A stretch of DNA of 64,000 nucleotides from an uncultured Gammaproteobacteria bacterium (GCA_964351225.1 CAYGNG010000011.1:886-64885); one strand, 5' to 3'. Shown: positions 11,760-40,780, counted from the first letter of the stretch. The notes: a model not told the origin generated them from the sequence alone. Translations and numbers: made by a program.

Positions 11760-12578
11760 CTAATGTTCATGACAGGCCATATTCAAATACACCATCGTTA
11801 GCATCATAAAAATATAAGTCTGCACGCTGATGATGAGAATATGAAACGCTGTCCATAAAAAATTGGGCACCCACAATACATAGAAGGGCAACAACCCAAT
11901 CAAGATAAACACCAACTCGCCAGCAAATAAATTACCATACAATCGCAGCGATAACGAAATGGGCTTAACAATCTCTTCGATGAGTTTTAACACCAGGTTA
12001 ACCGGCAATAAAATAATTTTGAAAATGAGGTTGTTTGCCGTAAACGGGGTGGTGGTAAACTCTTTCAAAACCCCCAAAATCCCCTTGCGGGTAAAGTTAA
12101 AGTAAAGGATCAGTAAAAACACGGTGAAGGACAGGGCAAACGTGGTATTCACATCGGCCGTTGGCACCACTCGTAAATAATGCACCCCAAGATGGCTGGC
12201 AACCCAAGGCAAAAAATCCAACGGCAGCAAATCCATAAAATTCATCAAAAAAATGTACAGTGCTAAAGTCAGCGCCAGCGGCGCCGCTAATTTGCTCTTA
12301 CCATCAAATGTTTCTTTGACACTGTCGTTAATGAAGTCTAAAACCATCTCAACAAACACTTGGAAACGACCAGGGACACCCGGTGTCGCTTGCGACGCGG
12401 CTTTGCAAATAAAAAACCCAATTCCGACTAACAAAAGTGTCGAGAAAAACAATGTGTCGACATTTAACGTATAAAACCCACCTTTATCATCAAAGGTCAT
12501 CGACGTCACATTGAATTTCAAATGTGTCAAATGGTGTTTAACATATTCCGACGCTGTCAAATTACCTTCACCACTCAT
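11760..12578 (-). CDS. atpB: ATP synthase F0 subunit a
   Basis: 272 aa polytopic membrane protein in operon position, with a conserved arginine-containing region (LSLRLYGNLFAGE). Confidence 0.9.
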   Translation of the reverse strand: MSGEGNLTASEYVKHHLTHLKFNVTSMTFDDKGGFYTLNVDTLFFSTLLLVGIGFFICKAASQATPGVPGRFQVFVEMVLDFINDSVKETFDGKSKLAAPLALTLALYIFLMNFMDLLPLDFLPWVASHLGVHYLRVVPTADVNTTFALSFTVFLLILYFNFTRKGILGVLKEFTTTPFTANNLIFKIILLPVNLVLKLIEEIVKPISLSLRLYGNLFAGELVFILIGLLPFYVLWVPNFLWTAFHILIISVQTYIFMMLTMVYLNMACHEH

Positions 12579-12961
12579 ATTACGCGACCCATCTCACTAT
12601 TAAATAAAGGTGTTAACCAATTTGCAAACAATGTTGCAATTAAACCCAGTAAAACCATTAATCCATCGCCCGGAAAATACTTCATGGTCACAAATAAAAA
12701 AAGTGTTGCGCCCAACAGCTTACTCGCTTCAGCGACATATATTTTCGTTACCATGGCTTGCTCAGTCTCTGAGGCGCCCAATGCGATTTTCATAAAAACA
12801 ATATTAGGGATAATAACGATTAACCCACCGATGAACGCTGAACTTGCAGCGACCAAACTTCGAAACAATAATATCACCGATAACAATAAGGCGATAATCA
12901 TTTGGTTGCGGATCACGGCTCTTGCAAATCGAGTCACGTGTTTAACGTTGCGCTTGGCCAT
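12575..12961 (-). CDS. atpI: ATP synthase protein I
   Basis: Small hydrophobic protein at the head of the atp operon. It overlaps the atpB start by 4 nt. Confidence 0.65.
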   Translation of the reverse strand: MAKRNVKHVTRFARAVIRNQMIIALLLSVILLFRSLVAASSAFIGGLIVIIPNIVFMKIALGASETEQAMVTKIYVAEASKLLGATLFLFVTMKYFPGDGLMVLLGLIATLFANWLTPLFNSEMGRVI

Positions 12962-13033
12962 CTGCCGTTTTTAACCCCACATTTAAGGTCGCAAAGTATA
13001 CTGATTATATTGCTATCATGCAATCATTAGGAC

Positions 13034-14101
13034 TTACGATAACCGCGCTATGTGTGCAGCGTGGCGATTACGCATATCTTGCGCTATCGTGCGCGCAAGA
13101 CTGGGTAAATGTGCCCCACACAAGATTGAATTATGATCACAATCTACCCATGTGGTTGTCAGATCCCGTAAAAACTTCTCCCACCCATGTGACTTTCTCT
13201 GCAAAAATAATTTTGAGTGTGGCAAACTGTGCCGCGACTGAAAAGACACGACCGGCTTATGGTAAATTTGATTCCGATGACGCATGAGCAACTTAATGTC
13301 ATTTCGGGTGGCCGCAAGAACGTGTTCCAACATCGGTTGTGGTAATTCACCCAAATAATGGCCAATGCGGTTAGGAAATTCTTGCTGAATACCTTTTAAG
13401 GTAATCATCCTTAAAACATGGCGCAACTGCACGCTGTCGTAACACGGCGTATCCAGCAAATAAATGGCCAATACCGCCTGACCTTCTGCTAAAAATTGTT
13501 GCGCAACTTCCAGCGCTAGTGTGCCGCCATAAGAAAAACCACCCAGAAAATACGGCCCCTCTGGAACCCGCGTTGCGATGTACTTTTTATAGCGCTTCGC
13601 TAATACCGTTAAAAACGGCATAAATTGCTCCCCACTGTATAAATTGTGTGAGTTAACCGCGTAGACCGCTGAATCCGTTTGCAACAGCTGGCTAAGCTCA
13701 CCGTAAACTTCCGCCCCGAATAAACTCGGTGGAAAAAAAATTAATGGTGGCGCACCTGAGCATCCGGCTTGCCATTGAATAATGGGCTCATAAGGAATAT
13801 GCAAATGAGGATGCTTACGCAAGGCAAGCGATTGTTGATAAATTGTCTGATTATGTTGCAGCCAGTCTGCGGGTAATGCTACCTGGAACTGCGCTTCGAT
13901 TCGTTGCTTCAGCCGCCGGCTTTTATCTCTGTCTGGATCAAACTGCGCGAGCGCAACCGTGACGCTATTAATCCGCTGTTGTAGGATTTCGCCCCACAAT
14001 CGGTAAAGCTGATATTCCACTTGATGATACAGCTGAAAACAGGGCGCTTGTAACCATTGCGCTTTATCGAGCGGTTTGCAACGCGCTATCTTTATTTTCA
14101 T
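13034..14101 (-). CDS. Alpha/beta-hydrolase, thioesterase-like (GxSxG), divergent from the megasynthase
   Basis: GFSYGG nucleophile elbow in a lipase/thioesterase-like context. I chose the ATG at 14101 (MKIKIARCK...) over the ORF-track start at 14152, which would overlap the neighbouring gene. Confidence 0.6.
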   Translation of the reverse strand: MKIKIARCKPLDKAQWLQAPCFQLYHQVEYQLYRLWGEILQQRINSVTVALAQFDPDRDKSRRLKQRIEAQFQVALPADWLQHNQTIYQQSLALRKHPHLHIPYEPIIQWQAGCSGAPPLIFFPPSLFGAEVYGELSQLLQTDSAVYAVNSHNLYSGEQFMPFLTVLAKRYKKYIATRVPEGPYFLGGFSYGGTLALEVAQQFLAEGQAVLAIYLLDTPCYDSVQLRHVLRMITLKGIQQEFPNRIGHYLGELPQPMLEHVLAATRNDIKLLMRHRNQIYHKPVVSFQSRHSLPHSKLFLQRKSHGWEKFLRDLTTTWVDCDHNSILCGAHLPSLARTIAQDMRNRHAAHIARLS

Positions 14102-14179
14102 TACCCTTTTCTCACAGTTTATGCTCGCATCGTGGGCGAAACACCCATACAATTCAAGCTCACAACAAAGGTGTTTGTA

Positions 14180-17100
14180 ATGGATAACCTCAAATTTTTC
14201 CCTGAAATTTTATGCCACAAGGCCAATACCTTTGCCAACAATCCGGCTATCACCTTCATCGATAAAGAATCAAAAAAATTTTCAACCTATCGACAGTTAG
14301 CAATCGACGCTACCGCCTTTGCCCAATGGTTTCTTACTCGTAACCTCAAACCAGCACGGGTATTGCTCTTTTTACCACCTGGCATTACCTACCTCAGTGC
14401 CTTTGCCGGCTGCCTCGGTGCCGGCATGATAGCGGTCCCCTGTTATCCGCCGCGCAATAATCACCATTTGCTACGCTTGCAAGCCATCCTTCACGACGCG
14501 AATGCCGATTTTATTATTACCACCGAAAAAATCGCTTCCCGTTTTAACTTTACGCACACGGTGATCATTGCAGAAGAAATTTTAACGCGACAACCCGCCG
14601 TCATGGAACCCTTGTCCTGCCATGCCGATGATATCGCTTTCTTACAATATACCTCTGGCTCCAGCGGCGATCCCAAAGGCGTGATCGTAACCCACGCCAT
14701 GCTCAGTTATAATATCAATGCTTCTATGGCCCAATATGGCGATGAATATTTCCAAACGTGTTGTTCCTGGCTACCCCCCTACCACGACATGGGGTTGCTA
14801 TTGGGGTTATTAGCACCCATCTACGCCGGTGGCCACAGCATCAACATGGCGCCCACCACTTTTTTGTCCCGTCCGGTTTTTTGGTTAGAAACCATCAGCC
14901 ACTATCGCGTTCAATTCAGCATCGCGCCTAATTTTGCTTATGACTATTGCTGGCAAAACACCACCAGCGCGCAAAAGCAAGCGCTGGATTTGACCTGCTG
15001 GAAAGTGGCCGCCAATGGCTCTGAACCCATCAGCGCCAACACCCTACAGCAATTCAGTGCGGCATTTGCTCGCTGTGGTTTTAATGCGCTCGCATTCTGT
15101 CCCAGCTATGGCATGGCCGAAAACACCCTCGGGATCTCCGCTGTCTCCGCCGATGAGCCACCCAAAATTTTGCACGCCAGTCTCGCTGAATTCCAGCGAG
15201 GAAAACTGCGCCTGGTTGAAGATAAGCACCCCCATAACATTGCTTTGGTTTCTTGTGGCAAACCGTTGCGGGGGCAAACCATTCGCATTGTACAACAGGC
15301 CGAAGAAAAGCCGGCTAATTGTTTGGGAGAGATTTGGTTAAAAGGCCCAAGCTGCGCACCGGGATATTGGCAAAACCCCAAATTGTCTGAACAAACCTTT
15401 CATGCGGCATTGTCGCCAAGAGACCAAAACTATTTACGAACCGGTGACCTGGGTTTTCTCGATACCGAAGGGCATCTGTATATCGCCGATCGCCTAACCG
15501 ATAGGTTATCTCGCTATGGGATGCAATATGCGCCATCGCTTATCGAGCAATCGGCAGCGGCTTGCTGCCCGGATTTAATTAAAAACGCCGCTGTTGCTTT
15601 CGCCGTTGAGACACGGCAACAAACGCAATTCATTTTAGTCAGCGAAATCCATCGCCACGCTCCAATCACCGAACAATTGTTTTCTAATATTTTGTCGCAC
15701 ATCGTGGCAGAGCATCAGGTTTTTCTCGATAAAATCATTTTAATTCGCCAAGTCAGCCTGCCCAAAACCTCCAGCGGGAAAGTCCAAAGAAGATTGTGCA
15801 AACACCACTATTTGCGTGGTGACTTGCAGGTGATCGCCAGCTGGGAAGCGCCTACCTTTCATCAAAATCCACAACCCCTGTTTCAACAAGCCCGCCCCCG
15901 CACAGAAACCGATATTTTAACGTGGTTGTCGGCCTGGCTCAAAATCCACTTTGCCCGCAACGTCGACGCGATAAACCCACAACAAAGTTTACATTATTAT
16001 GGCGTAACCTCTATTTCGTTAGCAAAACTCAGCGCCGATTTGCATTTATGGCTCGGGCAAATTATTCAACCGACCCTCTTATTCGAACATCATACCATTG
16101 CCGATCTCACGACCGCATTGATGGCGCTGAGCCAAACAAACCACCCAGCCCGCGTGCCCTCAAAAAAACCCCGCGCGAATGACAACCAATTTGCCATTGT
16201 CGGAATGAATTGTCGCCTCGCTGACATTGAAGATCTCGACGCGTTTTGGCACTTGCTATTAAGCGGCAAAACCACCATCGAAAACAACATACCGTTCCGC
16301 GAAGGCGCTTCGTTAACTGAAATCAACGCCGGCAGCTTTATTCACAACATTGAATTATTTGATGCTCATTTTTTTAATTGCCACGAAAAAGAAGCGATAG
16401 CGCTCGATCCGCAACAACGCTTATTGTTAGAGTGCAGCTGGCGCGCTTTTGAAAACGCGGGCATTGACGTCGCCAGCCTTTCTGGTAGTGGCACCGGCGT
16501 TTTCATCGGGATCAGCACGCATGATTATGGTCAACAACAACAATTTGCCGATCGCCAAACGTTGCCTTATATCAACACCGGTCATGCCCTAAGCACCGCC
16601 GCCGGGCGACTGGCGTATTTTTATAATTTTCTCGGCCCGGCGCTCGCTATTGATACCGCTTGCGCTTCATCCTTAAGCGCCATCGTTGAAGCCTGTTTAC
16701 ACTTACAAGCCACAACCTGTGATTTAGCCGTCGCCGGCGGCGTCAATGTCATTTTATCGCAACAAACCCACCAGGGTTTTGTAGCAGCAAATATGTTGTC
16801 GACAACCGGAGAGTGCGCCCCCTTTGCGCAAACCGCCAATGGCTATGTCCGTGGCGAAGGCTGTGGCGTGATTTTGCTAAAAAGACTGAGTGACGCCATC
16901 GAGGCCGGTGATCGCGTGTTGGCAATTATCACGGGGGTGGCGCAAAATCAAGATGGTTTCAGCAATGGCTTAACCGCCCCTAATGGCAAAGCGCAAGTCG
17001 CGTTGATGCAACACGCCTTGCAACAAGCGCAATGCCAGCCCCATGATATTTCTTTCATTGAAACCCATGGCACCGGCACCCGCTTAGGCGATGCCGTTGA

Positions 17101-19123
17101 AGGTGAAGCAATTGGCAACGCCTATTTGCAAAATAGGCCAAATGCCTTGCCGCTTTATCTTGGTACCCTAAAAGCAACCATCGGTCATTGTGAAGCGGCA
17201 GCCGGTGTCATGAGTGTGATCAAAACCGTTTTAATGTGTCAGCATCGAGCCATTGCGCCGAATCGATCGGTCCGCGTGCTCAATAGCTTTTTGAAACCAT
17301 TCGCCGAAAAATTACTTTTGCCCACTGAAATTACACCATGGCAGCCGCAAGGCGTTCGTTGCGCGGCGATCAGTTGTTTTGGTTTTTCAGGAACCAATGT
17401 CCACTTGATTTTACAAGAAGCCCATATCCCATCTCGCCGAAAACCACTGCCGCCATTGCCTTTTCACCGCGAGAAATACTGGCTAAGCCCACATCGCCCC
17501 CAACCTGTTTTTTCAGTGCCCGCACACGCCACGAGCGCCACCATTGCTGAAATTATTGTGCGTCATTTCGCGCAAAGCTTGCAAATGCCATCCGTTCCGC
17601 TTGATGCCCATTCGCCTTTTGTGGATATGCCGTTGGATTCCATTTTAGTCATTCGCTTATTACAATTTGTCGAGCAATTTTTTAACGTATCGCTATCGAG
17701 CCAAATGCTTTTTAATAAATACCCAACCATCGCTGCGCTTGCCGATTATATTTGGGCCAAGCGCAAGCCACAGCGCCCACCCCGGTCTGAGCGCTCAGCC
17801 ATAACGCGCTTTGTCCAACAATTTCAAGCAAAAACCACCCGCTCACGGCAAGCCGCCCGCCGCCTGCAGCAAGCGGTCGCCGACATGCGCTCCTTCCCGG
17901 CACAAACCCTTTATCGCGAATTGCTGCCAGCCATGTACCCGTTAGTGGCAAGCCGAGCCCAAGGCGCGCATCTGTGGGATTTAGATGATAATCACTATAT
18001 TGATTTATGCCTGGGGTTTGGGGTTCATTTATTTGGGCATAATCCCTTGTTTCTCAATCAAGCCTTGCAACAATCGCTGCAAAACGGTTATCAGCTCGGC
18101 CCTCGCAGTGAGTTAATCGCTGAAGTCGGTGAAAAAATTTGTCGGCTCACGCAACAAGATCGGGTCGCTTTTGCCGTTACCGGAACCGAAGCGATAATGC
18201 TGGCCATTCGGTTAGCCCGTGCCGCTACCGGCAAAAACAAAATTGTCATCTTTGCTGAATGCTACCATGGCCATACCGATACCGTGCAAGCGGTGAATTA
18301 CCAACAACGGGTATCGCCCAAATATCTGGGGATCCCGCCAAGCGCTATCCAAGACACCTTGGTTTTTTCATTGCATAATCCAGCCGCTTGTTATGACTAT
18401 ATTGAAAAACACAGCCACCACATCGCAGCGGTTTTGCTTGAACCCATACCCGCCCGACAACCGGCATTGCAAACCCAAATCGTATGCCAAACGCTGCGTA
18501 ACATCACGGAAAAACACACCATCGCGCTGATTTTCGACGAAATGATCACCGGTTTTCGGGTAGCCCCCGCGGGCGCCCAAAGCCTGTTTGCTATCAAGCC
18601 CGATCTCAGCGTTTATGGCAAAACCTTAGGGGGGGGCTTACCACTGGCGGTGGTGGCCGGTCGGGAAGACTATTTGCGCTTTATTGATGGCGGCCGTATG
18701 GCGCTTGACGACGCCAGCCACCACGGGATCACCCTCTCTGCTGGGACTTTCGGTAAACACCCGCTGGCGTTAGTGCTCGCCAATCGCTTTTTAGAAAAAA
18801 TACAGCAAGAAAGCCCTGCCTTACAACAGCAATTGCATGCGGTAACCGCTTCTTTTGTTAGCCGCTGCAATGGCTTATTACACAGCGCCGAGCTACCCAT
18901 TCAATTACAACACCGCGCATCGATGATGCGGTTCACCCCCCACTCCGGATACGATCTCAGCCTGTTTATCTTGCTGCTCATTTATCATGGCATTTATATT
19001 TGGGAAGGGCAGACCTGCTTCTTAGGAACCAATCACACCCCACAAGACATCAGCCACCTGTTAGAAAAAATTTCCAATTCTATTCAAGCGGTTAAAAACC
19101 TTCAACCGGTTAGGCCCCAGTGA
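14180..19123 (+). CDS. Hybrid megasynthase: fatty acyl-AMP ligase - ACP - ketosynthase - ACP - class III (PLP) aminotransferase
   Basis: FAAL motifs YTSGSSGDPKGV, YRTGDLGF and LPKTSSGKVQRR. First carrier domain around YGVTSISLAKL. KS motifs IVGMNCRLADIEDLDAFW, DTACASSLSA (Cys), ETHGTGTRLGD (His) and IGHCEAAAG (His). Second ACP MPLDSILVIRLL. Aminotransferase III motifs FDEMITGFR and YGKTLGGGLP (PLP lysine). No AT, KR or C/A domain. The start at ATG 14180 follows an AAGGTG RBS. Confidence 0.85.
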   Translation: MDNLKFFPEILCHKANTFANNPAITFIDKESKKFSTYRQLAIDATAFAQWFLTRNLKPARVLLFLPPGITYLSAFAGCLGAGMIAVPCYPPRNNHHLLRLQAILHDANADFIITTEKIASRFNFTHTVIIAEEILTRQPAVMEPLSCHADDIAFLQYTSGSSGDPKGVIVTHAMLSYNINASMAQYGDEYFQTCCSWLPPYHDMGLLLGLLAPIYAGGHSINMAPTTFLSRPVFWLETISHYRVQFSIAPNFAYDYCWQNTTSAQKQALDLTCWKVAANGSEPISANTLQQFSAAFARCGFNALAFCPSYGMAENTLGISAVSADEPPKILHASLAEFQRGKLRLVEDKHPHNIALVSCGKPLRGQTIRIVQQAEEKPANCLGEIWLKGPSCAPGYWQNPKLSEQTFHAALSPRDQNYLRTGDLGFLDTEGHLYIADRLTDRLSRYGMQYAPSLIEQSAAACCPDLIKNAAVAFAVETRQQTQFILVSEIHRHAPITEQLFSNILSHIVAEHQVFLDKIILIRQVSLPKTSSGKVQRRLCKHHYLRGDLQVIASWEAPTFHQNPQPLFQQARPRTETDILTWLSAWLKIHFARNVDAINPQQSLHYYGVTSISLAKLSADLHLWLGQIIQPTLLFEHHTIADLTTALMALSQTNHPARVPSKKPRANDNQFAIVGMNCRLADIEDLDAFWHLLLSGKTTIENNIPFREGASLTEINAGSFIHNIELFDAHFFNCHEKEAIALDPQQRLLLECSWRAFENAGIDVASLSGSGTGVFIGISTHDYGQQQQFADRQTLPYINTGHALSTAAGRLAYFYNFLGPALAIDTACASSLSAIVEACLHLQATTCDLAVAGGVNVILSQQTHQGFVAANMLSTTGECAPFAQTANGYVRGEGCGVILLKRLSDAIEAGDRVLAIITGVAQNQDGFSNGLTAPNGKAQVALMQHALQQAQCQPHDISFIETHGTGTRLGDAVEGEAIGNAYLQNRPNALPLYLGTLKATIGHCEAAAGVMSVIKTVLMCQHRAIAPNRSVRVLNSFLKPFAEKLLLPTEITPWQPQGVRCAAISCFGFSGTNVHLILQEAHIPSRRKPLPPLPFHREKYWLSPHRPQPVFSVPAHATSATIAEIIVRHFAQSLQMPSVPLDAHSPFVDMPLDSILVIRLLQFVEQFFNVSLSSQMLFNKYPTIAALADYIWAKRKPQRPPRSERSAITRFVQQFQAKTTRSRQAARRLQQAVADMRSFPAQTLYRELLPAMYPLVASRAQGAHLWDLDDNHYIDLCLGFGVHLFGHNPLFLNQALQQSLQNGYQLGPRSELIAEVGEKICRLTQQDRVAFAVTGTEAIMLAIRLARAATGKNKIVIFAECYHGHTDTVQAVNYQQRVSPKYLGIPPSAIQDTLVFSLHNPAACYDYIEKHSHHIAAVLLEPIPARQPALQTQIVCQTLRNITEKHTIALIFDEMITGFRVAPAGAQSLFAIKPDLSVYGKTLGGGLPLAVVAGREDYLRFIDGGRMALDDASHHGITLSAGTFGKHPLALVLANRFLEKIQQESPALQQQLHAVTASFVSRCNGLLHSAELPIQLQHRASMMRFTPHSGYDLSLFILLLIYHGIYIWEGQTCFLGTNHTPQDISHLLEKISNSIQAVKNLQPVRPQ

Positions 19124-19185: not shown

Positions 19186-20043
19186 ATGGCATTACCCACG
19201 CCCAGAGACAGTAACAGTGACCTCACAGAACGCACGCGCAGCAACAGTGAACCCGAACCAGTAAAAGCCTCAGAGCAAAAACCTCGCCCTCGCTCATCAA
19301 GCTATGCTAATATTCATCAGACTTTAAAAGCAAACCCACCACAGCCCGACAGTGGACCGCAGCCAGAAATCGCCACCATTGGCACCTCAACGCAACAAAC
19401 TGAAGAAGCGAAAAAGCAACAAACTGACGACGAGAAGAAAAAAGCGGAGGACGCTTTTCAAGCTCAGCTTGCAACTATGGGCACCTCCATTGAGACGGCA
19501 GTACACACCGTGCTTAAAAATTCAAATGACAATGAAGAACTTACAGAAGAAACAAAAAAATCCATCACGATCACCCCAGGGAAAGAAGAAGATGGCAAAG
19601 GAAATGAATTCACGGTGAAGATGCCCAACGAACTTAGTTTTAAAATCACACTCCAAAAAGACGGATCCCTCTCTTGCAACAAGCTTAAGGATCCCGAGGC
19701 GTTAGCGGTATTAATGGAAACGTACAAACAACAAAACCCCGACAAAAAAGGATTTGATATTTTTGGAAAGCAAGATATTGACGCGAATATGGCAATAGTT
19801 GAAGCCGGATTAAAGGCTGGCTTGTTTTATAATGGCAACGATGACAAGATCAATAAAAGAATTAATAGCGACGAGAAGCTCAAGGAAATGCAAGGGAAAT
19901 TAAAAAAAGAAGCAAAAGCGGAAGAAACCACCGCCAACACCGCGACACAACAACACGCGCCTGTGGTGGGGGTGGGGGTGGAGGCGCCACCGCAACCGCA
20001 ACCGCCATCGCAACCGCCATCGCCATCGCCATCGCCTTCGTAA
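19186..20043 (+). CDS. Intrinsically disordered K/E/T-rich protein with a C-terminal (PQ/PS)n repeat
   Basis: 285 aa of low-complexity sequence with no hydrophobic core. It ends PPQPQPPSQPPSPSPSPS, encoded by a GCCATC-type hexanucleotide array. It lies 63 nt after the megasynthase stop on the same strand. Confidence 0.5.
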   Translation: MALPTPRDSNSDLTERTRSNSEPEPVKASEQKPRPRSSSYANIHQTLKANPPQPDSGPQPEIATIGTSTQQTEEAKKQQTDDEKKKAEDAFQAQLATMGTSIETAVHTVLKNSNDNEELTEETKKSITITPGKEEDGKGNEFTVKMPNELSFKITLQKDGSLSCNKLKDPEALAVLMETYKQQNPDKKGFDIFGKQDIDANMAIVEAGLKAGLFYNGNDDKINKRINSDEKLKEMQGKLKKEAKAEETTANTATQQHAPVVGVGVEAPPQPQPPSQPPSPSPSPS

Positions 20044-20086: not shown

Positions 20087-20182
20087 CTGCGAATCGTCTC
20101 TATTGAATTGAATGATGGCGCGCGCTGCTTTGTTAAAAACGCAACTAACATCGGTTGTTGTAAGTCCTAACGGTGGCAAGCC

Positions 20183-21079
20183 CTACCGCAAGTGATCTAA
20201 AATCCCTTCCAGTTGTTCTAACGAGTGATATTGAATAACGATTTTTCCTTTGCCCTTCGGATGATGCTCAATAGCAACCAATGCGCCTAATGATTCCGAT
20301 AAGCTTTTTTGCAACCGCGAAATATCCGGATCGGATTTCGCTTTGGCGGCAGCTGCTGTTGGTTTCTGTGCGCCTTCTAATCGTTGCCGAAGGTAATTTT
20401 CGGTATCGCGCACCGTCAAATGGCGCTCGACTATGCAATGCGCCGCTTGCAATTGTTGGTTTTTATCCACCAAACCCAAAAGCACTTTGGCGTGCCCCAT
20501 TTCCAAGTCGCCATTCTCAACTAAGCGCAAAACGTCCGTGTCTAAATTTAACACGCGCAACAAGTTGCTAACGCTGACGCGATTTTTACCCAAAGCATCC
20601 GCGGCTTCTTGATGGGTTAAATCAAACTCATTAATCAAGCGTTGGATCGCTCTGGCTTCTTCGATGGGGTTGAGTTGTTCGCGTTGAATGTTTTCGATGA
20701 GCGCCACCGCTAATGCGGCCTGATCCGACACGTCGCGAATAACCGCGGGGACCTCTGCGATACCGGCAATTTGTGCGGCTCGCCAACGGCGCTCACCCGC
20801 GATAATTTCATATTGGTTCTCTGCAAGCGGCCGCAACACAATCGGTTGAATAATCCCTTGATGGCGAATGGATTCGGCCAGCTCCTGCAGCGCTTCGTGA
20901 TCAAAGGCTTTGCGTGGTTGATAGCGACCGGCTTTTATCCATTCAATGGGGATCTGCTTTAATTTTTCTTTGTTAACCGATCCCTCCGTCCCGGCCATCG
21001 GATCCGGTGTTGTGATCTCCGCAGTGCTCAACAATTCCGATAGCCCACGACCTAAACCACTGCGCTTCTTAACCACCAT
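20183..21079 (-). CDS. parB: Chromosome partitioning protein ParB
   Basis: ParB/Spo0J box (GERRWRAA), HTH region, 298 aa. Confidence 0.9.
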   Translation of the reverse strand: MVVKKRSGLGRGLSELLSTAEITTPDPMAGTEGSVNKEKLKQIPIEWIKAGRYQPRKAFDHEALQELAESIRHQGIIQPIVLRPLAENQYEIIAGERRWRAAQIAGIAEVPAVIRDVSDQAALAVALIENIQREQLNPIEEARAIQRLINEFDLTHQEAADALGKNRVSVSNLLRVLNLDTDVLRLVENGDLEMGHAKVLLGLVDKNQQLQAAHCIVERHLTVRDTENYLRQRLEGAQKPTAAAAKAKSDPDISRLQKSLSESLGALVAIEHHPKGKGKIVIQYHSLEQLEGILDHLR

Positions 21080-21089
21080 TTTTTATTCC

Positions 21090-21899
21090 TCATCCCATCT
21101 CAGCAACTGTCGTCGATTCTTGTTGCTTCACAAATTCACCATCGCGTTGTTTTAAAATTTCGGTCGCTAAATCCAGATAAGCTTTAGCGCCGGCGGATTG
21201 CTTATCATACAATATGGCGGGCAAACCAAAACTCGGGGCTTCGGCCAGGCGAACATTTCTCGGAATAACGGTATTGTATACTTTCTTGCCGAAATGTACG
21301 ATGATTTGTTCAGAAACATCATTAGTGAGGCGGTTTCGCGCGTCATACATGGTGCGAACCAACCCTTCTATGGTCAAATTCGGATTAACAGTGGTTTTTA
21401 TTTGCTCGATGGTTTTCACCAAACCGGATAAGCCCTCCAACGCATAGTATTCACATTGCATCGGGATCAACACGCTGTTTGCAGCGACTAAGGCATTAAT
21501 AGTCAACATATTAATGGAAGGCGGGCAATCGATGATAATAAAATCGTAACCATCCCGTACTCTGGCGAGTGCTTGCAATAAGCGATGCTCACGGTGCGTC
21601 TTATTGAGTAATCCCACTTCCGCGGCCACTAAATCACTATTGGTCGGTGCTAAATCATAACCTGCCATCGTACCAACAATGGCTTCTTGAATCTCTACTT
21701 CATCCAATAACACATCCGTCATCGTGATTTCGCGCATTTCTTTATCGATACCACTGCCCATCGTCGCATTCCCTTGTGGATCAATATCCACTAATAAAAC
21801 GCGACGCTGATGACTCGCGATGGATGCTGCAAGATTAATACAAGTCGTTGTTTTACCAACACCGCCTTTTTGATTGGCAACTGCAATAACTTTAGCCAC
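21090..21899 (-). CDS. parA: Chromosome partitioning ATPase ParA
   Basis: Deviant Walker A KGGVGKTT, 269 aa. Confidence 0.9.
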   Translation of the reverse strand: MAKVIAVANQKGGVGKTTTCINLAASIASHQRRVLLVDIDPQGNATMGSGIDKEMREITMTDVLLDEVEIQEAIVGTMAGYDLAPTNSDLVAAEVGLLNKTHREHRLLQALARVRDGYDFIIIDCPPSINMLTINALVAANSVLIPMQCEYYALEGLSGLVKTIEQIKTTVNPNLTIEGLVRTMYDARNRLTNDVSEQIIVHFGKKVYNTVIPRNVRLAEAPSFGLPAILYDKQSAGAKAYLDLATEILKQRDGEFVKQQESTTVAEMG

Positions 21900-25535: not shown

Positions 25536-26009
25536 TTATGCGCATCGGACTTGGCCACCTTGCCACGCCGCTTCGTTGTTTTTTCTGGAATAGGAGGCAT
25601 TATCAACTACACGATTTAAGTTAATCATTTGTGCTACAAGAAGCTGGATAACATATGCCTTAATGCCATTTCCATATTGCAATGGCCCAGGCATGTCATG
25701 AGGAAACGGGGCTTTAACTTTGCTATCACATGCTGGACATTGTTTTATTTCAACCGCCACGTGCTCTACCGTTTTTTCAAAAATGATATCGATTTTTGTG
25801 CGACGCTCAATGCATTCACAAGCAAAGGCACTTAAATCTTTACCGCATCGGTCACAGGCTAAGACGAGTATAACAGTAACTGTTTCTACCGTCTGCGTAA
25901 CAGTTATGGTGCTGCAGGAAAAACTCGAAAACAACGTGAAAAAAGCTGGCAAGTTCTTTTTAAAAAATATTTTATGCGTCTGATCGCTATCTCCGCTGCC
26001 ATGCATCAT
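25536..26009 (-). pseudogene. IS66-family transposase (TnpC-like) N-terminal zinc-finger fragment. A degraded remnant.
   Basis: CDRCGKDL...VEIKQCPACDSKVKAPFP...GIKAYVIQLLVAQ matches the IS66 zinc-finger pattern C-CG..L...KY-C--C....AP-P...G...A.V.V-KY. It then diverges after about 150 aa against an expected ~500 aa. Confidence 0.5.
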
Positions 26010-29304: not shown

Positions 29305-30534
29305 ATGCTATCTCATTTCCATCAGCCGTCGCCCACCCCAAGACAACAGCTGCTCTTACAAAACCTAGCGAAAAAACTTGGGTATGTTTGGTCAGAGGAC
29401 AGCAAGCCCTTGCTTATCGATATCGAGCAAACACTCAAAAAAAACATTGTCGACCTCTATCAAATTGAAGTCGCCAAAGTGGCGCGGCAAAACGTACCTG
29501 CGTTAACCCCGGAACAACAAAAAGCCTATCGCAACCTCAACCTCTGGATTGGCTGGATGACACGACACCGCGACATCATGATCGACTTAAAAAGCTATTT
29601 TACCCGATTTTTTAACAACCACCCCGGGGGGGCTTTATTGGGGGAGCATCTGCTTTTTGTAACCATCCTCGGGGTTTGGGGTAACCACAAATCAATTAAT
29701 CAGGATCCCGAACAGCAAACAGAGCCTCTGCGATACTATCAACCCAATATCCCATTACGTGTTTATAGAAACACCCCCCCGCAACTCATTGATCAACACA
29801 CAAAAACCTACTTTTTAACACAACAGAATTTGCGTCATTATGACAACATGGTCGCTGCAATCTTGGCGCGGCTCCGACCAAAAATCCAACAACTGCCTGT
29901 TGTTATCCTGCAATCAAAAAACCCACGGACTTTGGCGGCTTGCTATCACATTGATGAGACCGCGCGCACTTTGGTCGAAATCCGACAAAACACCAACGCA
30001 CTGCCTTCTTGTGATGAAAAAGAAAAAACGATAGCGCTTTATGAGATAATTCTTGACATCATAGCAACCGCCACTGAAAGTTACCCACAAAATGAAAATG
30101 AAGGCAATAAAGCCTATATTTACCAGCTCGCTATTTGGCGCGTGGCGCCTGAGCTCGCCTATTTGTTCGTACAATACGAGGTGATAAAACAGCTCTCACG
30201 CGCCCACCCGCTGCCCCAAAAGCCCAATCCATTGTATGCGGATTTAAAACAACGCCTTACTTTTGGAGAAGTTTCGGCAAAAGGGTATCATGAAGGCATT
30301 GCCGCACTACCAATAACACAACTATTAACCCTAAAAGCATTTCAGCCTTTACAACAACCCACCGAACACAAACGATCGAGAAAAGAGCTACCCACTCCCG
30401 AAAATAAACTTGGCACCGTAAAAAAATCGAAGAGACCGCCCCACGAACACCATCGTGAGGCAATCGAAAAGGATCAGCAACGGATTAACAAAACGCCGGG
30501 GAAGAAGTGCTTGCGGATAATTGCCGCCCCATAG
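29305..30534 (+). CDS. Hypothetical protein (409 aa). Its 3' end overlaps the convergent 1025-aa gene.
   Basis: Long ORF with no recognisable domains. Confidence 0.45.
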   Translation: MLSHFHQPSPTPRQQLLLQNLAKKLGYVWSEDSKPLLIDIEQTLKKNIVDLYQIEVAKVARQNVPALTPEQQKAYRNLNLWIGWMTRHRDIMIDLKSYFTRFFNNHPGGALLGEHLLFVTILGVWGNHKSINQDPEQQTEPLRYYQPNIPLRVYRNTPPQLIDQHTKTYFLTQQNLRHYDNMVAAILARLRPKIQQLPVVILQSKNPRTLAACYHIDETARTLVEIRQNTNALPSCDEKEKTIALYEIILDIIATATESYPQNENEGNKAYIYQLAIWRVAPELAYLFVQYEVIKQLSRAHPLPQKPNPLYADLKQRLTFGEVSAKGYHEGIAALPITQLLTLKAFQPLQQPTEHKRSRKELPTPENKLGTVKKSKRPPHEHHREAIEKDQQRINKTPGKKCLRIIAAP

Positions 30535-33500
30535 AAGACACCAACGACTCCTTCAGTGCTACATCACCAGACTGTGTGGCGTATTCCGTTACGTGTTGGC
30601 ACACGCTAGAATAAGCACCGTGTCTTATTGAATCGAGTGCCGATTCTAATTGTTGCAGCGGTATGGTGGCTAACAGTTGTTTAAGCTTAGCGGTGTTGGT
30701 TGGATTAACCGCGAACTTGCCGTTCTTAATCCATGTTGCAACGGCATCAAACCCCTTGGCAATAAACTTGCTCGCGTCATCCATTAATTGATTCGGTGCG
30801 GATCGCGCGGCATTCCGTCCGCTTTGGCTAAACATTCCCATGGTATTACCAAGCGATCCCATAAAATCAAAACCAGACATCTCGGGTTCCGATTTCGCTT
30901 CGCTGGCAACCGAATTAGCTGAGCGTTGCTCACGCCATTTGCCAAGAATATATTGTAAATATCCAGGGTTATCTGCTCGTAACAACACTTGCAACAGATT
31001 CAATCCGCCGATACCTTGATTCACATACACCTCTTCACATGAAAAATTCCAAACCGGATTTTTAAGTAAGTATTGCTCTTCCAATAAGGCCTTGAAACTC
31101 GCGAAATCAACCGTTGTTACTTTACCTTGGGCGTTAGTCACCAGGGTTCCTGAAATTAAGCGAATGAGGTTGCTTGGAATATCAATGCGGCTGTCAACGT
31201 GATCATATGCTCTATATAAAGGCCCATTCCCTCTCAGAGCGCCCTCAGCAAGCAACATGGCTCTCAATACGTCGTATTCCGGATTTTTATCCTTATAAAT
31301 TTCCAGAAAATCTAAAGCGGTATACCGATAACCATTAATCCTCGCTGTCACCGTATTCACATGATAGCCACCCAAGACCAACAACGTAAATAATTCTTCG
31401 GGGGAAACACCTCGAGCAAGGGCTTCATGAATTGGGGTAAGCCCAAATTGGTTCGTGAAAAACCGTAAGACTTTCATGCCTGGGCGAGAAAAAATCCAAA
31501 CCAATTCCGGCATGGGTATCTTCGTTAAATGATAAGTCACCCAATTTGCTAAGGTTTCTAACTTATGCACTCTCCCATCGAATAAAATTTGTGTAACTAA
31601 GGCTGGGTTTTTTTCTAAAAATGGCCGCCATTCGTGTACATTTACCCCTCGCGCTAAATTATCATAAAAGGTTTCAATTTCTGGCGATTGAACATGAGGA
31701 TCATACCCAGACACCAAGCCGGCAAACCGACCGGCTTGCCCATCTTGTAATTGGGCGACGCTTGCGGCTATCTTCCTCCGGTTTTTTTCAATATGCCTTT
31801 TAAACGCCAGTGGGCCGATTTTTAAGGTGATCATCAACACCGGGATTTTTACTTTCTTATCGCCTTGCTCATACACTTTGTGGCTGTCGGTCTTGATGAT
31901 CCGAATAACATCCGCGGACAACGCGAGTGTTTTACACACTAAATCCACCAGCGTTTTTGCTTCTTGGCTCTCCGTTGTCACTTTATCGTCACTTACTGGG
32001 ATCACGACTTTTAAATCACCAAATTGCTCAATCACACAACTTGGCATTTGATCCAAGGTTTGTAACATCTCTCTGACGCCTTGTAAGGCTTGTGTTGAAT
32101 CGGAAGCGTGCTCTAGCAAATCACGCGCCGAAGGTGCGCCACTGAAATGCTTATAGGCGACTCGTTCAGGCTTACCTTGGATGACCGCAGGCAATCGCGC
32201 CAGCGCAGAGGATTTTTTAGGGTGGTAATCAAATACCGCTTGGACTTGTGCCAACACGTGTGCTGTCGCCCCCGGCTGCCAACGAATGCAAACCGGTGGT
32301 AATTTGCCAAACCCTGGTGCGCCCTCCACCGGAGAGGCTTCACCATACATCTCTGCTTTTAAAGAATTTTCGCGTGTTTTATCGCGCGGACGAACTTCAT
32401 TGCATGGCACGGTAATCCGACGACGCATCCCGCCATTACCCTGGCGAACCGCCATGAGGGGTGCTGTTTTGTATCGTTGCGCAAGAGAATCCATCTCCTC
32501 ACCTTCTTTTTTAACCATGGCACCTAAGGCAAGTTTTGGATTTTGGCTTTGTAACAACGCTGGTTGGTTTTCCAAAAAGGTTTTCACCTGGTGTCTCCTA
32601 GCAAAAGGTAGGATACCGAAATTAACCTTGTCTTGTTGGTAAAAGTCACGCACGGCTGGCGCGGTATATTGATGCTCAAGAATATACAGTAAGCCAAAGT
32701 TGCGTAATTGCTTTCTGGTCAAGATTACTTCCGTGGTGTGCAGTAATTCACACACTCGCTCGACATCCACCTCTCCCGTTTCTTTTCGGTAACACGCGTT
32801 CCCTTGATCCCATTGGTTAAATAATTGCAACAATAATTCATCCACATCCAAATCGGGGCCACCAAATGCGCTATCTTCGCCTAAAGGAATGGCATGGGCA
32901 CGATAATAGCGCTCCATCATATGTAACAACATCCCTTGCAGATTTAACGCGGGACCAGCCAAAAAGTTAAATCGGTCTTCATCCACTTTTTGATCATCTT
33001 CCCCTTTCGCGAAAGGGCACCACGCGTGCATGCTTTGTACAGCGCCCGTTGCTAACAACTGTTCTAACTGTGTAATAAAAATCCCAACGGATTCATCTGA
33101 TTTATAGTGCGGACGAAAAACCTCTTGGGTTATGGTGCCTAACTCCGGCGTGATGTTTTTTTCTAACTTAAGCTCACTGTCCGCTGCTTGTTCCGCACTA
33201 ACCGGTTTAAAACGAAAATCCAATGAACCATAAGAAGAAAGCTCACCACCTCCCGTTAACACTTTGGCATTGGTGGCCAGCGCAATTCGAAACGCTTGGG
33301 CTTTTTGACCAACTGTTAACGAAAACATTAATTCTTGGAGTATCGGGTCCTCTTTTTTATCTTCTTGTGGCGCAACATACGCTGCGGACGCTTGGCTGAT
33401 GGGACGAGCCGCTCGCGGTGGCGCACCTTCTTCCTGATCCGAGTCATCATCGTGCTCATATTGTTGCAGATTCAGCGGCTGGCCTTCAATTTGGGCTGCA

Positions 33501-33562
33501 TCTAAATCTTGGATGGTAGAACCGGTATCTGGGTACATAAAAAACACTCCTTTTGTTGTCAC
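30485..33562 (-). CDS. Large hypothetical protein (about 1025 aa), candidate secreted effector
   Basis: Uninterrupted 3 kb ORF with an acidic N-terminal region and no recognisable catalytic motif. The alternative start MYPDTGS is 8 codons downstream. Confidence 0.55.
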   Translation of the reverse strand: MTTKGVFFMYPDTGSTIQDLDAAQIEGQPLNLQQYEHDDDSDQEEGAPPRAARPISQASAAYVAPQEDKKEDPILQELMFSLTVGQKAQAFRIALATNAKVLTGGGELSSYGSLDFRFKPVSAEQAADSELKLEKNITPELGTITQEVFRPHYKSDESVGIFITQLEQLLATGAVQSMHAWCPFAKGEDDQKVDEDRFNFLAGPALNLQGMLLHMMERYYRAHAIPLGEDSAFGGPDLDVDELLLQLFNQWDQGNACYRKETGEVDVERVCELLHTTEVILTRKQLRNFGLLYILEHQYTAPAVRDFYQQDKVNFGILPFARRHQVKTFLENQPALLQSQNPKLALGAMVKKEGEEMDSLAQRYKTAPLMAVRQGNGGMRRRITVPCNEVRPRDKTRENSLKAEMYGEASPVEGAPGFGKLPPVCIRWQPGATAHVLAQVQAVFDYHPKKSSALARLPAVIQGKPERVAYKHFSGAPSARDLLEHASDSTQALQGVREMLQTLDQMPSCVIEQFGDLKVVIPVSDDKVTTESQEAKTLVDLVCKTLALSADVIRIIKTDSHKVYEQGDKKVKIPVLMITLKIGPLAFKRHIEKNRRKIAASVAQLQDGQAGRFAGLVSGYDPHVQSPEIETFYDNLARGVNVHEWRPFLEKNPALVTQILFDGRVHKLETLANWVTYHLTKIPMPELVWIFSRPGMKVLRFFTNQFGLTPIHEALARGVSPEELFTLLVLGGYHVNTVTARINGYRYTALDFLEIYKDKNPEYDVLRAMLLAEGALRGNGPLYRAYDHVDSRIDIPSNLIRLISGTLVTNAQGKVTTVDFASFKALLEEQYLLKNPVWNFSCEEVYVNQGIGGLNLLQVLLRADNPGYLQYILGKWREQRSANSVASEAKSEPEMSGFDFMGSLGNTMGMFSQSGRNAARSAPNQLMDDASKFIAKGFDAVATWIKNGKFAVNPTNTAKLKQLLATIPLQQLESALDSIRHGAYSSVCQHVTEYATQSGDVALKESLVSSMGRQLSASTSSPAFC

Positions 33563-37600: not shown

Positions 37601-37706
37601 GGTTATTAGTCGCGTTTTTATGAGGATAAGGTTTTTTTTGTTATTTTTATCAAACGGTTATGATATGAATAAAAAACCCATTTGGGTTGGGTGTGTTTGT
37701 GGATAA
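37601..37706. promoter_or_regulatory. Second DnaA-box cluster (TGAGGATAA at 37601-37609, perfect TGTGGATAA at 37698-37706) in an AT-rich tract just downstream of rpmH
   Basis: Consensus matches as seen in the sequence. A T-rich region lies at 37560-37690. Confidence 0.5.
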
Positions 37707-37815
37707 AATTGTAACGTGGTGGTGGTGTGTTTACGATTTTAACGATACAGTAAAAAACGCCATTTTTATCACAAGGTCATTTGCAGATTACTCACAACTT
37801 TACAGGGTTATTCGA

Positions 37816-38979
37816 ATGAGGGAAAAATACGCACTTCTGGTTTTTTTATTGGTTTGCTCGCTTTCTGCTTATGCGCAAAGTGACGACAGATTTTTAATCG
37901 TGGTTGATGCCGGCAGCCGTGGTACGCGATTGCACCTCTATTCTCTTCACTATTCGCTAGGCAACCTATTAATTATCAATGAATTATCAGATCCCAACCG
38001 CCTGCAAACGGGTAATATTGATGCTTTTGCAGAGGATCCTCATCAAGCAGGCCAACAGGTAAAGCCACTTTTTGCGCTGGCTAGTGCCATGATCGAAAAA
38101 GAAGGTGGTGATCCGAAACAAGTTTCAGCCTATTTCTACGCAACAGCCGGAATGCGCTTATTGGAGCAAAAAAATCCAATAAAAGCGCGCACCATCTATC
38201 AAAGCATTCGTTTGCAGATGCAAAAATATTTTCAGGTAAAAGCGGTTCGTACTTTATCCGGGGTATGGGAGGGTATTTATAATTGGATTGGTATTAACTA
38301 CCTATTAGGTCGGTTACAAGACCCCAAAAAAACAGTTGCGGCATTAGATATGGGAGGCGCCTCGACGCAAATTACTTATTCGGTGGAAAGCCATCAAGCG
38401 GCTGATCTTATCCCGGTCCGAGTGGGGCATTATAAATACAATGTGTTGTCACACTCTTTTTTAGGTTTGGGACAAAACCAAGCGGAACAAAATGTGGGTT
38501 TTGTCGCTGCCTGCTATCCCCAAAACGCATTGCCTGGATCCGAAACGGCTTTTGTTTTCCAACCGTGCGCCATGCGTCTTACCGCTTTGCTCGATAAATA
38601 TCACATAGCGAACGCGTTTAAGCACAAAATTGAAGCGGATGAACAGTTTCTAGGGGTCTCCGGGTATTATTACGTGGGCGATTTTTTTGGGATTTCAGAC
38701 AAAAGCTATCCAATACAAGCGCTGCATGATCAGATCGTGGCGGTTTGTTCACAACCGTATCGTCGGATCCAACAACAACATCCGCAAATCGATCCCAAAT
38801 ACCTCGCGCATTATTGCTTCCAAGGCGTTTATCAATACGTCTTGTTGACACAGGGTTACGGACTATCGGAGGCATCTACCGCGGAGCGCTATAATATCCT
38901 CAATGCGGTTACCACCGCCCGCGGCACCGTAATTCCGTCGTGGAGTCTCGGCGTAGCGGTTTCGCAAGGAATGCCTTAA
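37816..38979 (+). CDS. Secreted GDA1/CD39-family nucleoside triphosphate diphosphohydrolase (apyrase), eukaryotic-like
   Basis: Apyrase conserved regions VVDAGSRGTRLHLY (ACR1), YATAGMRLL (ACR2) and LDMGGASTQITY (ACR4). Signal peptide MREKYALLVFLLVCSLSAYA when started at ATG 37816. Confidence 0.8.
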   Translation: MREKYALLVFLLVCSLSAYAQSDDRFLIVVDAGSRGTRLHLYSLHYSLGNLLIINELSDPNRLQTGNIDAFAEDPHQAGQQVKPLFALASAMIEKEGGDPKQVSAYFYATAGMRLLEQKNPIKARTIYQSIRLQMQKYFQVKAVRTLSGVWEGIYNWIGINYLLGRLQDPKKTVAALDMGGASTQITYSVESHQAADLIPVRVGHYKYNVLSHSFLGLGQNQAEQNVGFVAACYPQNALPGSETAFVFQPCAMRLTALLDKYHIANAFKHKIEADEQFLGVSGYYYVGDFFGISDKSYPIQALHDQIVAVCSQPYRRIQQQHPQIDPKYLAHYCFQGVYQYVLLTQGYGLSEASTAERYNILNAVTTARGTVIPSWSLGVAVSQGMP

Positions 38980-39349: not shown

Positions 39350-40780
39350 TTGACGGAAAAACCGTATTTTGAGGAGAAGCGCTTGGCCGAGTCGTCAGCA
39401 ATTTGGGAAAATTGCTTAGAAAAGCTGCAGGATGAAATTTCCCAACAACAATTTAATACCTGGTTACGGCCGCTACAAGCCGAAGAACGCGACAACAAGC
39501 TGTGGTTATTTGCTCCGAATCGTTTTGTGCTGGATTGGATTAGTGATAAATTTTTACCACGAATTAATGATGTGTTGCGAATGATTTGTCACGACAAATC
39601 ACCCCCGGTCGTCGTTCTTGAAATAGGAAGCAAGAGCGATGGTGCGTTAGGGCGTTTTTCAACACCAGAAACGCGGGACGCCGCAGTGGTTCGAACGAAC
39701 AACGCCCCGACCCCCATTGGGGATCTGGTTTCCGCCCCCGGCGGGGGGGGGGAAGCGCATCGCAGCAACATCAATCGAACCTTTACCTTTGAGAATTTTG
39801 TAGAAGGCAAATCGAACCAGCTGGCACGAGCGGCTTCTATGCAAGTGGCGGAAAATCCTGGCGCGGCTTACAATCCCTTGTTTCTTTACGGTGGTGTCGG
39901 GTTGGGTAAAACGCACTTAATGCACGCGGTGGGTAACTTAATTATAGAACACAAACCCAATGCGAAGGTCTTGTATTTGCACTCGGAGCGTTTTGTTGCC
40001 GACATGGTAAAAGCGCTGCAGACTAATCGCATGAACGATTTTAAGCGGTATTACCGGTCAGTGGATGCGTTATTAATCGATGACATCCAGTTTTTTGCGG
40101 GTAAAGATCGGTCGCAAGAAGAGTTTTTCCATACGTTTAATGCGCTGCTGGAAGGGCAGCAACAAGTCATCCTAACGTGTGACCGCTATCCCAAAGAAAT
40201 AAAAGGCCTAGAAGAAAGATTAAAATCTCGATTTGGATGGGGGTTGACGGTTGCCGTTGAACCACCAGAGTTGGAAACGCGCGTTGCCATTTTAATCTCG
40301 AAAGCACAACAGTCAAACATCGAATTACCCCACGAAGTGGCTTTCTTTGTTGCTAAGCGGATCCGCTCAAACGTTCGAGAGCTGGAAGGCGCCCTAAAAA
40401 GAATCATTGCAAATGCTCATTTTACCGGGAAGCCCATCACGATAGATTTTGTCAGAGAAGCACTAAAAGATTTATTAAGCTTACAAGACAAGCTTATCAC
40501 GATAGAGAACATCCAAAAAACCGTGGCGGAATATTACAAAATTCGCGTATCCGATTTATTATCGAAACGACGCAGTCGTTCAGTTGCCAGGCCAAGGCAA
40601 ACAGCAATGGCACTCGCAAAAGAATTAACGAACCATAGCCTTCCTGAAATCGGGGATGCTTTCAATGGGCGTGACCATACCACGGTGTTGCATGCTTGCC
40701 GCACAATCAAGACATTGCGCGAATCCAATGTTGATCTTGAGCAAGATTTTATGAATTTGTTGCGAATATTAAGCACATAG
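39350..40780 (+). CDS. dnaA: Chromosomal replication initiator DnaA
   Basis: AAA+ [10 protein letters not shown], DnaA signature, C-terminal DNA-binding domain. TTG start as given by the ORF track. Confidence 0.95.

Follow-up and report, generated by a model that had tools for sequence, protein, structure and literature searches.

A free-standing acyl ligase-ketosynthase-aminotransferase megasynthase on an inserted island of a Legionellales-like gammaproteobacterium, a candidate minimal 3-amino fatty acid synthase

A three-gene island encoding an unusual megasynthase of 1647 amino acids (aa) lies between the atp operon (atpIBEFHAGDC, 7957-12961, minus strand) and the partitioning genes parB/parA (20183-21899, minus strand) of an uncultured gammaproteobacterium. 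We analysed it within a stretch of 64,000 nucleotides (GCA_964351225.1 CAYGNG010000011.1:886-64885), hereafter the window, and count positions from its first letter. Open reading frame (ORF) listing and Pfam, NCBIfam and PDB searches gave the domain order of the megasynthase as fatty acyl-AMP ligase (FAAL), acyl carrier protein (ACP1), ketosynthase (KS), a second carrier (ACP2) and a pyridoxal phosphate (PLP)-dependent aminotransferase (AMT). A divergently transcribed thioesterase (TE) gene precedes it, and an orphan, ORF3, follows directly downstream on the same strand (Table 1).

The megasynthase gene starts with an ATG at 14180 behind a good Shine-Dalgarno sequence (AAAGGTG), and the same gene call is present in an independent Logan assembly (run ERR3534985). 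Its 4.9 kb are uninterrupted, with neither frameshifts nor internal stops. Since the stop codon follows 10 residues after the end of a complete AMT alignment and the contig extends in both directions, the megasynthase is not a gene fragment. In Pfam, AMP-binding (aa 13-397, E 1.6e-57) is followed by a C-terminal subdomain of the DIP2/FAAL type (aa 442-553), the two parts of the KS (ketoacyl-synt N, aa 672-906, E 4e-73; C, aa 914-1030, E 2e-36) and Aminotran_3 (aa 1254-1579, E 1e-44), with two PP-binding stretches, the second at aa 1126-1191. The Pfam matches of the megasynthase and the TE are very strong and not due to chance. The same scan of the megasynthase found no acyltransferase (AT; Acyl_transf_1, PF00698), ketoreductase (KR), dehydratase, condensation (C) or second AMP-binding domain. 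A motif search found the catalytic residues complete, i.e. Ser611 (GVTS), Cys828 (DTAC), His963 (HGTGT), His1003 (IGH), Ser1154 (LDSI) and Lys1481 (YGKTLGGG), and the two serine-bearing carriers (Ser611, Ser1154) flank the Cys-His-His KS as they do in lipo-initiation modules of the MycA/ItuA/BmyA type. An initial annotation, made from the sequence alone, had proposed these five domains with intact catalytic residues (including the KS cysteine and the AMT lysine in YGK), the lack of AT, KR and nonribosomal peptide synthetase (NRPS) C or adenylation (A) domains, a divergent GxSxG thioesterase and the position between the atp operon and parAB, all of which agree with our searches; the KS and aminotransferase domains, on whose recovery by domain searches it had staked its reading, are those given above.

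The N-terminal domain is predicted to be a fatty acyl-AMP ligase, neither a CoA ligase nor an amino-acid A domain. FAAL families lead its NCBIfam adenylation-domain matches, and in the PDB the first 15 matches are all FAAL-type ligases, with adenylation domains after them. FAAL matches include 7r7f (best, E 6e-115), the L. pneumophila FAAL 3kxw (E 6e-101), FadD32/23/28 and EcFAAL 3pbk, some FAAL-type entries carrying the deposited name acyl-CoA synthase. The alignment is free of gaps from YGMAE (311) to SCGKP (357), the segment between which we take to be the FAAL insertion region, mapped only roughly.

At the other end of the protein, the C-terminal 547 aa matched the ACP-AMT didomain of MycA (6kfu, E 1.2e-99) and its AMT alone (6kfm, E 3.5e-95), and the next PDB matches, glutamate-1-semialdehyde aminomutases of the HemL type, reached only ~1e-45. 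Identity to the MycA AMT is 39.5% across 428 aligned residues, and Lys1481 in YGKTLGGG lines up with YGKIIGGG of MycA, which as a whole is not within the 120 best full-length relatives of the megasynthase. In MycA, a free fatty acid is attached to ACP1 by the ligase, ACP2 receives malonyl in trans from FenF (PMC3039948), and the AMT uses glutamine to aminate the ACP-bound beta-keto thioester (PMC3039948, PMC3870968). The window protein shares with the loading portion of MycA, ItuA and BmyA the acyl-AMP ligase, ACP1, KS, ACP2 and PLP aminotransferase as well as the lack of a cis AT, and its expected chemistry would likewise lead from a fatty acid and malonyl via 3-oxoacyl to a 3-aminoacyl thioester (PMC3039948, PMC3870968). 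The same domain logic had been noted in the initial annotation, and with the 6kfu and 6kfm matches and the published MycA/FenF biochemistry the analogy appears correct at the level of domains and homology. The differences concern the surroundings of this module. MycA runs on into a C-A-peptidyl carrier protein (PCP) module and two more NRPS proteins, whereas the window protein stops after the AMT and, unlike in a lipopeptide operon, the next ORF downstream has no NRPS similarity in Pfam or NCBIfam. A discrete malonyl transferase (FenF, ItuD or BmyD) is part of the MycA, ItuA and BmyA operons, whereas none adjoins the window megasynthase. Moreover, the window system has a separate thioesterase for release where the MycA synthase has its NRPS continuation, and the hosts differ, with Bacillus for MycA and a Legionellales-like gammaproteobacterium for the window locus.

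Relatives of the megasynthase are few and distant. In a search of 5.8 billion proteins, the word pre-filter of which is a caveat on rarity, it formed a singleton cluster, the next matches covering about two thirds of the query at 36-38% identity, and no protein of ~1650 aa with the architecture FAAL-ACP-KS-ACP-AMT was found, though one would be expected among the top scores. All three island genes are singletons, the TE with two distant relatives only. A representative search with KS-ACP2-AMT as query gave nothing within 50% identity, its best 150 matches all being giant multi-KS synthases with summed scores, and a genome-contig collection scanned with the megasynthase yielded only HemL-like genes (27-32% identity).

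The best full-length relatives are synthases of the P0003, P0004 and P0013 type (P numbers denote database proteins), with 36-38% identity over FAAL-ACP-KS and 38% over ACP-AMT. P0004 (Melittangium boletus) and P0013 (from a metagenome) are fused FAAL-ACP-KS-AT-ACP-AMT-TE proteins in loci without NRPS genes. The P0004 type and the window locus are alike in being free-standing without NRPS neighbours and in having a thioesterase next after amination; the former possesses a cis AT with a linker domain (~485 aa) and a TE fused as C-terminal domain, whereas the window protein lacks all of these and the window TE is a separate divergent gene. As the fused AMT-TE genes of P0004 and P0013 stand alone, "one module, aminate, release" is an existing design. 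They appear to encode beta-amino fatty acid synthases made from a single gene each, a family so far not characterised, and we found no description in the literature of free-standing FAAL-KS-ACP-AMT proteins, fused AMT-TE genes or their products. In M. boletus (locus L101, CP185340.1, 10001-17164), a fatty acid desaturase gene lies upstream and an alpha/beta hydrolase gene downstream of the fused gene, while at locus L102 (10001-17419) the fused gene has an AMP-binding (acyl-CoA-synthetase-like) gene downstream.

Among the listed matches with an AMT, Pfam shows an AT in all except P0008 and P0021, and about half end in a TE (for example P0003, P0004, P0012-P0017, P0022, P0025), the rest in a C domain. 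The two AT-less proteins resemble the window protein in having no AT between KS and ACP2 and the same order through the AMT. They differ in a KS-flanking linker domain of ~100-200 aa (KAsynt_C_assoc near full length, CurL-like PKS_C) and in continuing from the AMT into condensation domains, which the window protein does not; P0008 belongs to a large NRPS/polyketide synthase (PKS) cluster with a phosphopantetheinyl transferase (PPTase), MbtH and a type II TE. The FAAL-ACP-KS front end is 38-42% identical to FAAL-led type I PKSs of cyanobacteria and Legionella. The cyanobacterial olefin synthase type (FAAL-ACP-KS-AT-KR-ACP-sulfotransferase (ST)-TE) and the Legionella type (FAAL-ACP-KS-AT-KR-ACP-C) all have a cis AT, reduce the 3-oxo group by the KR, end in ST-TE or C and contain no aminotransferase. 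Several such FAAL-led PKS genes occur in Legionella species (P0028, P0032, P0049, P0070, P0075). The myxofacycline pathway was set aside as a relative, its AMT being located inside a non-canonical NRPS module.

The junction between KS and ACP2 is where the window protein departs most visibly from cis-AT synthases. Its KS core ends with HLILQEA (Ala1081), followed by eight residues (HIPSRRKP) and then LPPLPFHREKYWL (aa 1090-1102), a type of motif that comes after the AT in relatives (LPTYPFQRQRCW in P0002, LPTYAFQRRRFWL in P0003 and P0004, LPTYPFRRERFWL in P0013, LPTYAFQHQSYWL in P0032 of Legionella rowbothamii) and corresponds to FPGYPFQRRPHWF in the AT-less P0008. Since this post-AT motif begins 8 residues beyond the KS, both the AT and the entire KS-AT linker domain are absent. 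Likewise, the BLAST alignment of FAAL-ACP-KS with P0004 reaches query 1098/subject 1105 and resumes at query 1130/subject 1591, and P0004 residues 1105-1590 (linker domain and AT, ~485 aa) are without counterpart, while KAsynt_C_assoc is found only in part (aa 1043-1088, profile positions 11-53 of 111). In the PDB, KSs of the cis-AT type are on top (CurL 2e-107, Pks13 and DEBS ~1e-91) and trans-AT structures score lower (PksJ 6e-84, the "AT-less PKS" 4qyr 9e-78). Further, the combination typical of trans-AT PKS modules, a flanking subdomain replacing the AT together with a discrete AT in the cluster, was not found in the window. We infer that linker domain and AT were cleanly and secondarily lost from an ancestor of the cis-AT FAAL-PKS-AMT type, a loss judged against P0004, P0008 and P0021, with the KS-ACP2 region of MycA outside this comparison.

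The divergent gene is predicted to encode a type I thioesterase (Pfam Thioesterase PF00975, aa 119-341, E 3e-22) with GFS190YGG as its GxSxG motif. Its nearest PDB matches are terminal TE domains of NRPSs and PKSs (AB3403 4zxh, NocB TE, tautomycetin TE, EntF), and the triad Ser190/Asp217/His323 is invariant in its sole database relatives, P0245 (truncated by a contig end) and P0246, which share 30-33% identity with it and are PCP-TE and A-PCP-TE ends of larger NRPSs. It is stand-alone like a type II TE, yet has 355 aa and an extra N-terminal domain compared with ~240-260 aa in editing TEs such as SrfAD/RifR. For this N-terminus, PP-binding is the only Pfam family, at a sub-threshold E of 0.17 (residues 63-88 against profile positions 36-61); hhalign against three PCPs gave the same register (E 0.008, probability only 5%), and the 4zxh alignment begins in the last PCP helix. 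In this weak register, Arg58 occupies the position of the phosphopantetheine serine. These matches are suggestive of a carrier-like relic without serine (~residues 25-100), probably a docking piece or a structural relic of an NRPS PCP-TE end. A single-sequence AF2 model of the protein was too poor for a fold (mean pLDDT 36). That the TE split off from a P0004-type fused gene was rejected, the best BLAST match to the P0004 TE having an E of 0.49. Both genes have Shine-Dalgarno-like sequences in the intergenic region, and no consensus sigma-70 site was called inside these 78 bp (14102..14179).

The genomic setting identifies the three genes as an insertion. We compared 80 metagenomic loci with ParB proteins 46-60% identical to that of the window, 58 of which hold both parB and atpB. 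The distance from the parB end to atpB was 479-1444 bp in these 58 loci (median 594, 57 below 800), compared with 7605 bp in the window, and none of them contained a PKS, a TE of the window type or ORF3. Thus, TE, megasynthase and ORF3 form a 7.1 kb segment inserted in a conserved junction, between parB and atpI. Exactly at its ends lies a 27-nt imperfect inverted repeat (22/27 complementary) with a local score of 17, which none of 2000 dinucleotide shuffles reached (8.4 +/- 1.3); its exact 11-mer core, TTAGGACTTAC, has one further copy at 40894. The repeat may derive from a mobile cassette whose termini it once formed. Near the island, there was no integrase or transposase in the ORF list and no tRNA in the tRNA scan, and scans of the locus gave no defence system (PADLOC), tRNA integration site or RNA element (Rfam). 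A recent horizontal transfer, as judged by composition, was rejected: GC content at third codon positions (GC3) of the megasynthase is 0.53 against 0.41-0.52 in host genes, and overall GC is also close to the host, so the insertion is not recent. ORF3 carries a PPQPQPPSQPPSPSPSPS tail and a 24-nt tandem repeat (19389-19436). Pfam, NCBIfam, PADLOC and PDB searches gave no match for it; it might act as a secreted effector or be cargo without relation to the megasynthase.

Table 1. Features of the inserted island and its boundaries, in window coordinates; domain assignments are predictions from the listed evidence.
Feature	Position	Strand	Evidence and remarks
Left inverted-repeat arm	13019..13045		Overlaps thioesterase stop codon
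TE with carrier-like relic (~residues 25-100, Arg58), 355 aa	13034..14101	-	Pfam PF00975, PDB, hhalign
Divergent intergenic region, 78 bp	14102..14179		Shine-Dalgarno-like sequences for both genes
Megasynthase FAAL-ACP1-KS-ACP2-AMT	14180..19123	+	1647 aa; Pfam, NCBIfam, PDB, motifs
Fatty acyl-AMP ligase domain, aa 1-556	14180..15847	+	NCBIfam, PDB
ACP1, aa ~575-650, Ser611 in GVTS	15902..16129	+	Pfam PP-binding, motif
Ketosynthase, aa 668-1081, Cys828/His963/His1003	16181..17422	+	Pfam, motifs, PDB
Post-AT linker motif LPPLPFHREKYWL, aa 1090-1102	17447..17485	+	BLAST break against P0004, motif comparison
ACP2, aa 1122-1191, Ser1154 in LDSI	17543..17752	+	Pfam PP-binding 1126-1191; aligned with MycA ACP2 in 6kfu
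PLP aminotransferase domain, aa 1204-1637, Lys1481	17789..19090	+	6kfm/6kfu matches
Orphan ORF3, 285 aa	19186..20043	+	Low complexity, Lys/Glu-rich, Pro/Ser-rich tail; singleton cluster
Right inverted-repeat arm	20152..20178		Between ORF3 stop and parB stop

An island with missing parts might be the decaying remnant of an iturin-like hybrid cluster that has lost its AT, linker domain and C-A module and is without a defined product. The absence of AT and KS-AT linker domain, the serine-less carrier relic on the TE protein and the singleton status of all three genes would fit such decay, as would the inverted-repeat boundaries, which suggest an old mobile insertion, and a host with features of an intracellular, effector-rich Legionellales-like bacterium. 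However, a reading frame of 1647 codons is maintained without stop or frameshift, the catalytic residues of all five domains and the TE triad are kept, both genes have Shine-Dalgarno sequences and the composition is that of the host. A mere remnant seems quite improbable to us.

As explanation of the locus, we slightly favour a functional minimal synthase for 3-amino (beta-amino) fatty acids, carried on the 7.1 kb inserted island. Our direct observations are that the domains are present, intact and homologous to characterised enzymes, from which AT partner, chain length, amine donor, release and product are deduced. Judging from characterised FAALs and the homology to MycA, the FAAL would adenylate a free fatty acid and load it onto Ser611 of ACP1, from where the acyl chain would pass to Cys828 of the KS. 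Ser1154 of ACP2 would be malonylated by an AT from another locus, the simplest candidate being the housekeeping FabD. A precedent is known from AT-less PKS loci in Legionella, where the sole malonyl transferase in the genome is that of fatty acid synthesis (PMC5640695). Decarboxylative condensation would then give 3-oxoacyl-S-ACP2 with a chain longer by two carbons.

The initial annotation had also envisaged an AT acting in trans; neither the island nor the further 20 ORFs that we scanned in the window encode one. Without one, the KS would never meet malonyl-ACP2 and there would be no chain extension; a pre-formed 3-oxo acid might, for instance, enter via the FAAL and yield a product as long as its starter. 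For myxofacyclines, a FAAL that activates a 3-oxo acid has been suggested (PMC9298251), although MycA, as a homologous system, does extend its chain using trans-loaded malonyl (PMC3039948). The KS, moreover, carries the full Cys-His-His set of a condensing enzyme. We also know of no route from ACP1 to ACP2 besides condensation, and a pathway without extension would be highly improbable.

Returning to the synthase interpretation, the PLP domain (Lys1481) would transaminate C3 to give 3-aminoacyl-S-ACP2, with glutamine as donor by homology with the MycA domain. Since no condensation domain follows the AMT, the divergent thioesterase (Ser190/Asp217/His323) would unload ACP2 in trans, releasing a free 3-amino fatty acid or transferring it to a nucleophile. 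The product would be such a free or transferred 3-amino fatty acid rather than a lipopeptide. This interpretation is favoured by the divergent arrangement of TE and megasynthase, with starts only 78 bp apart. Further, direct TE release after amination would be a recurring design, given the free-standing fused AMT-TE genes P0004 and P0013, and host-like GC and GC3 together with the lack of frameshifts in 4.9 kb argue for a long residence under selection.

On the other hand, the amination module might feed a split lipopeptide or N-acyl pathway in which 3-aminoacyl-ACP2 is handed to a C-domain protein or NRPS encoded elsewhere, the TE serving that line or acting in editing. In the AT-less relatives P0008 and P0021 a C domain directly follows the AMT, with P0008 in its large NRPS/PKS cluster, and the nearest relatives of the TE are A-PCP-TE and PCP-TE ends of NRPSs. 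Legionella clusters have been described as scattered systems of lone domains whose other parts lie at different places of the genome (PMC5640695), and our genomic view comprises 64 kb, beyond which a C-domain or NRPS partner might be located. Still, the island and the other ORFs scanned are devoid of C and A domains and of a functional PCP, and the PCP-like region of the TE protein has no serine. With its three genes between repeats, the island forms a compact unit, and the fused AMT-TE relatives make direct release viable. We regard a split pathway as unlikely, albeit with some weight.

Several observations count against a self-contained 3-amino fatty acid synthase, beginning with the C domains of P0008 and P0021 just mentioned. 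The island encodes no AT, PPTase or transporter, and the same holds for the 20 other window ORFs scanned, barring one major facilitator superfamily gene 8 kb away. The KS lacks the flanking linker domain that the AT-less P0008 and P0021 retain, and activity of a linker-less KS is only putative. For the orphan TE, the nearest relatives share 30-33% identity, and the inactive state of its carrier-like domain might be a sign of decay. As a singleton, the megasynthase offers no basis for estimates of conservation or selection. A bolder version of the synthase interpretation would see in the locus the first MycA-like module that stands alone, a self-sufficient producer of long-chain 3-amino fatty acids in free form, with a KS working without AT and linker and a dead carrier used as docking piece. 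It would have been acquired as a mobile cassette near the replication origin, its aminolipid acting on membrane or host. We put it forward tentatively and find it rather doubtful.

The implied chemistry is already known from iturin-family synthetases; what is new is the free-standing form without AT and linker, the separate TE and the island. Points that go beyond the initial annotation are the serine-less carrier-like N-terminus of the TE, the lost KS-AT linker, the repeat-bounded insertion and the fused FAAL-KS-AT-ACP-AMT-TE genes in databases. If active, a protein of 1647 aa and a thioesterase would convert a fatty acid to a 3-amino fatty acid, and to our knowledge there is no smaller natural unit for this conversion. 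It could then be a compact candidate part for beta-amino fatty acid production or for engineering of lipo-initiation. Its KS would be a type I KS functional without AT and linker, with a bearing on the evolution from cis-AT to AT-less modules. As a minimal system the locus is neat, and the loss of AT and linker can be put to the test with it. A Legionellales-like lineage that is effector-rich and little sampled would also gain an aminolipid-type pathway, and the locus draws attention to the fused FAAL-KS-AT-ACP-AMT-TE genes of myxobacteria and metagenomes, a group so far unstudied.

The host, a gammaproteobacterium near Legionellales, is unsampled. No database entry exceeds 72% identity to its GyrB, the top named match being a Legionellales metagenome-assembled genome, followed by many Legionella at 69-71%. 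The window includes the replication origin region, with a GC-skew minimum at ~36 kb near dnaA, dnaN, recF and gyrB. It also contains eukaryote-like genes, a kind that is typical of Legionellales effector repertoires. One encodes a protein with a DOT1-like histone methyltransferase domain (884-1585, plus strand, Pfam E 9e-16) in a core region, the other a eukaryote-type ecto-NTPDase of the GDA1/CD39 family (37687-38979, plus strand, Pfam E 3.5e-56) between rnpA and dnaA, which in our view recalls effectors of the Legionella Lpg1905 type. For seven sizeable ORFs, 157 to 1025 aa in length, Pfam gave no family at E <1e-4 (30485-33562, 3478-4593, 52899-54437, 47312-48202, 61318-62400 and 25536-26009 on the minus strand, 29305-30534 on the plus strand). 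So high a proportion of orphans is unusual in a core region close to the origin and would fit an intracellular lineage rich in effectors.

Elsewhere in the window, an Rfam match to AsdA (dnaA mRNA antisense RNA) inside dnaA (39887-39967, minus strand) scores 54.5 bits against a gathering threshold of 52 and may merely reflect sequence conservation of dnaA. A low-GC stretch (50001-52000, 0.36 compared with ~0.46) holds an ORF for an ATPase_2/AAA-type ATPase (50866-52308, minus strand) and may be a separate recent insertion. Two Yip1-domain membrane proteins are encoded in tandem (48222-49740, plus strand, Pfam E 4e-5 and 3e-10). A protein of 338 aa (54486-55502, minus strand) has as its sole recognisable part a C-terminal J domain (DnaJ, residues 244-300), an atypical position for this domain.

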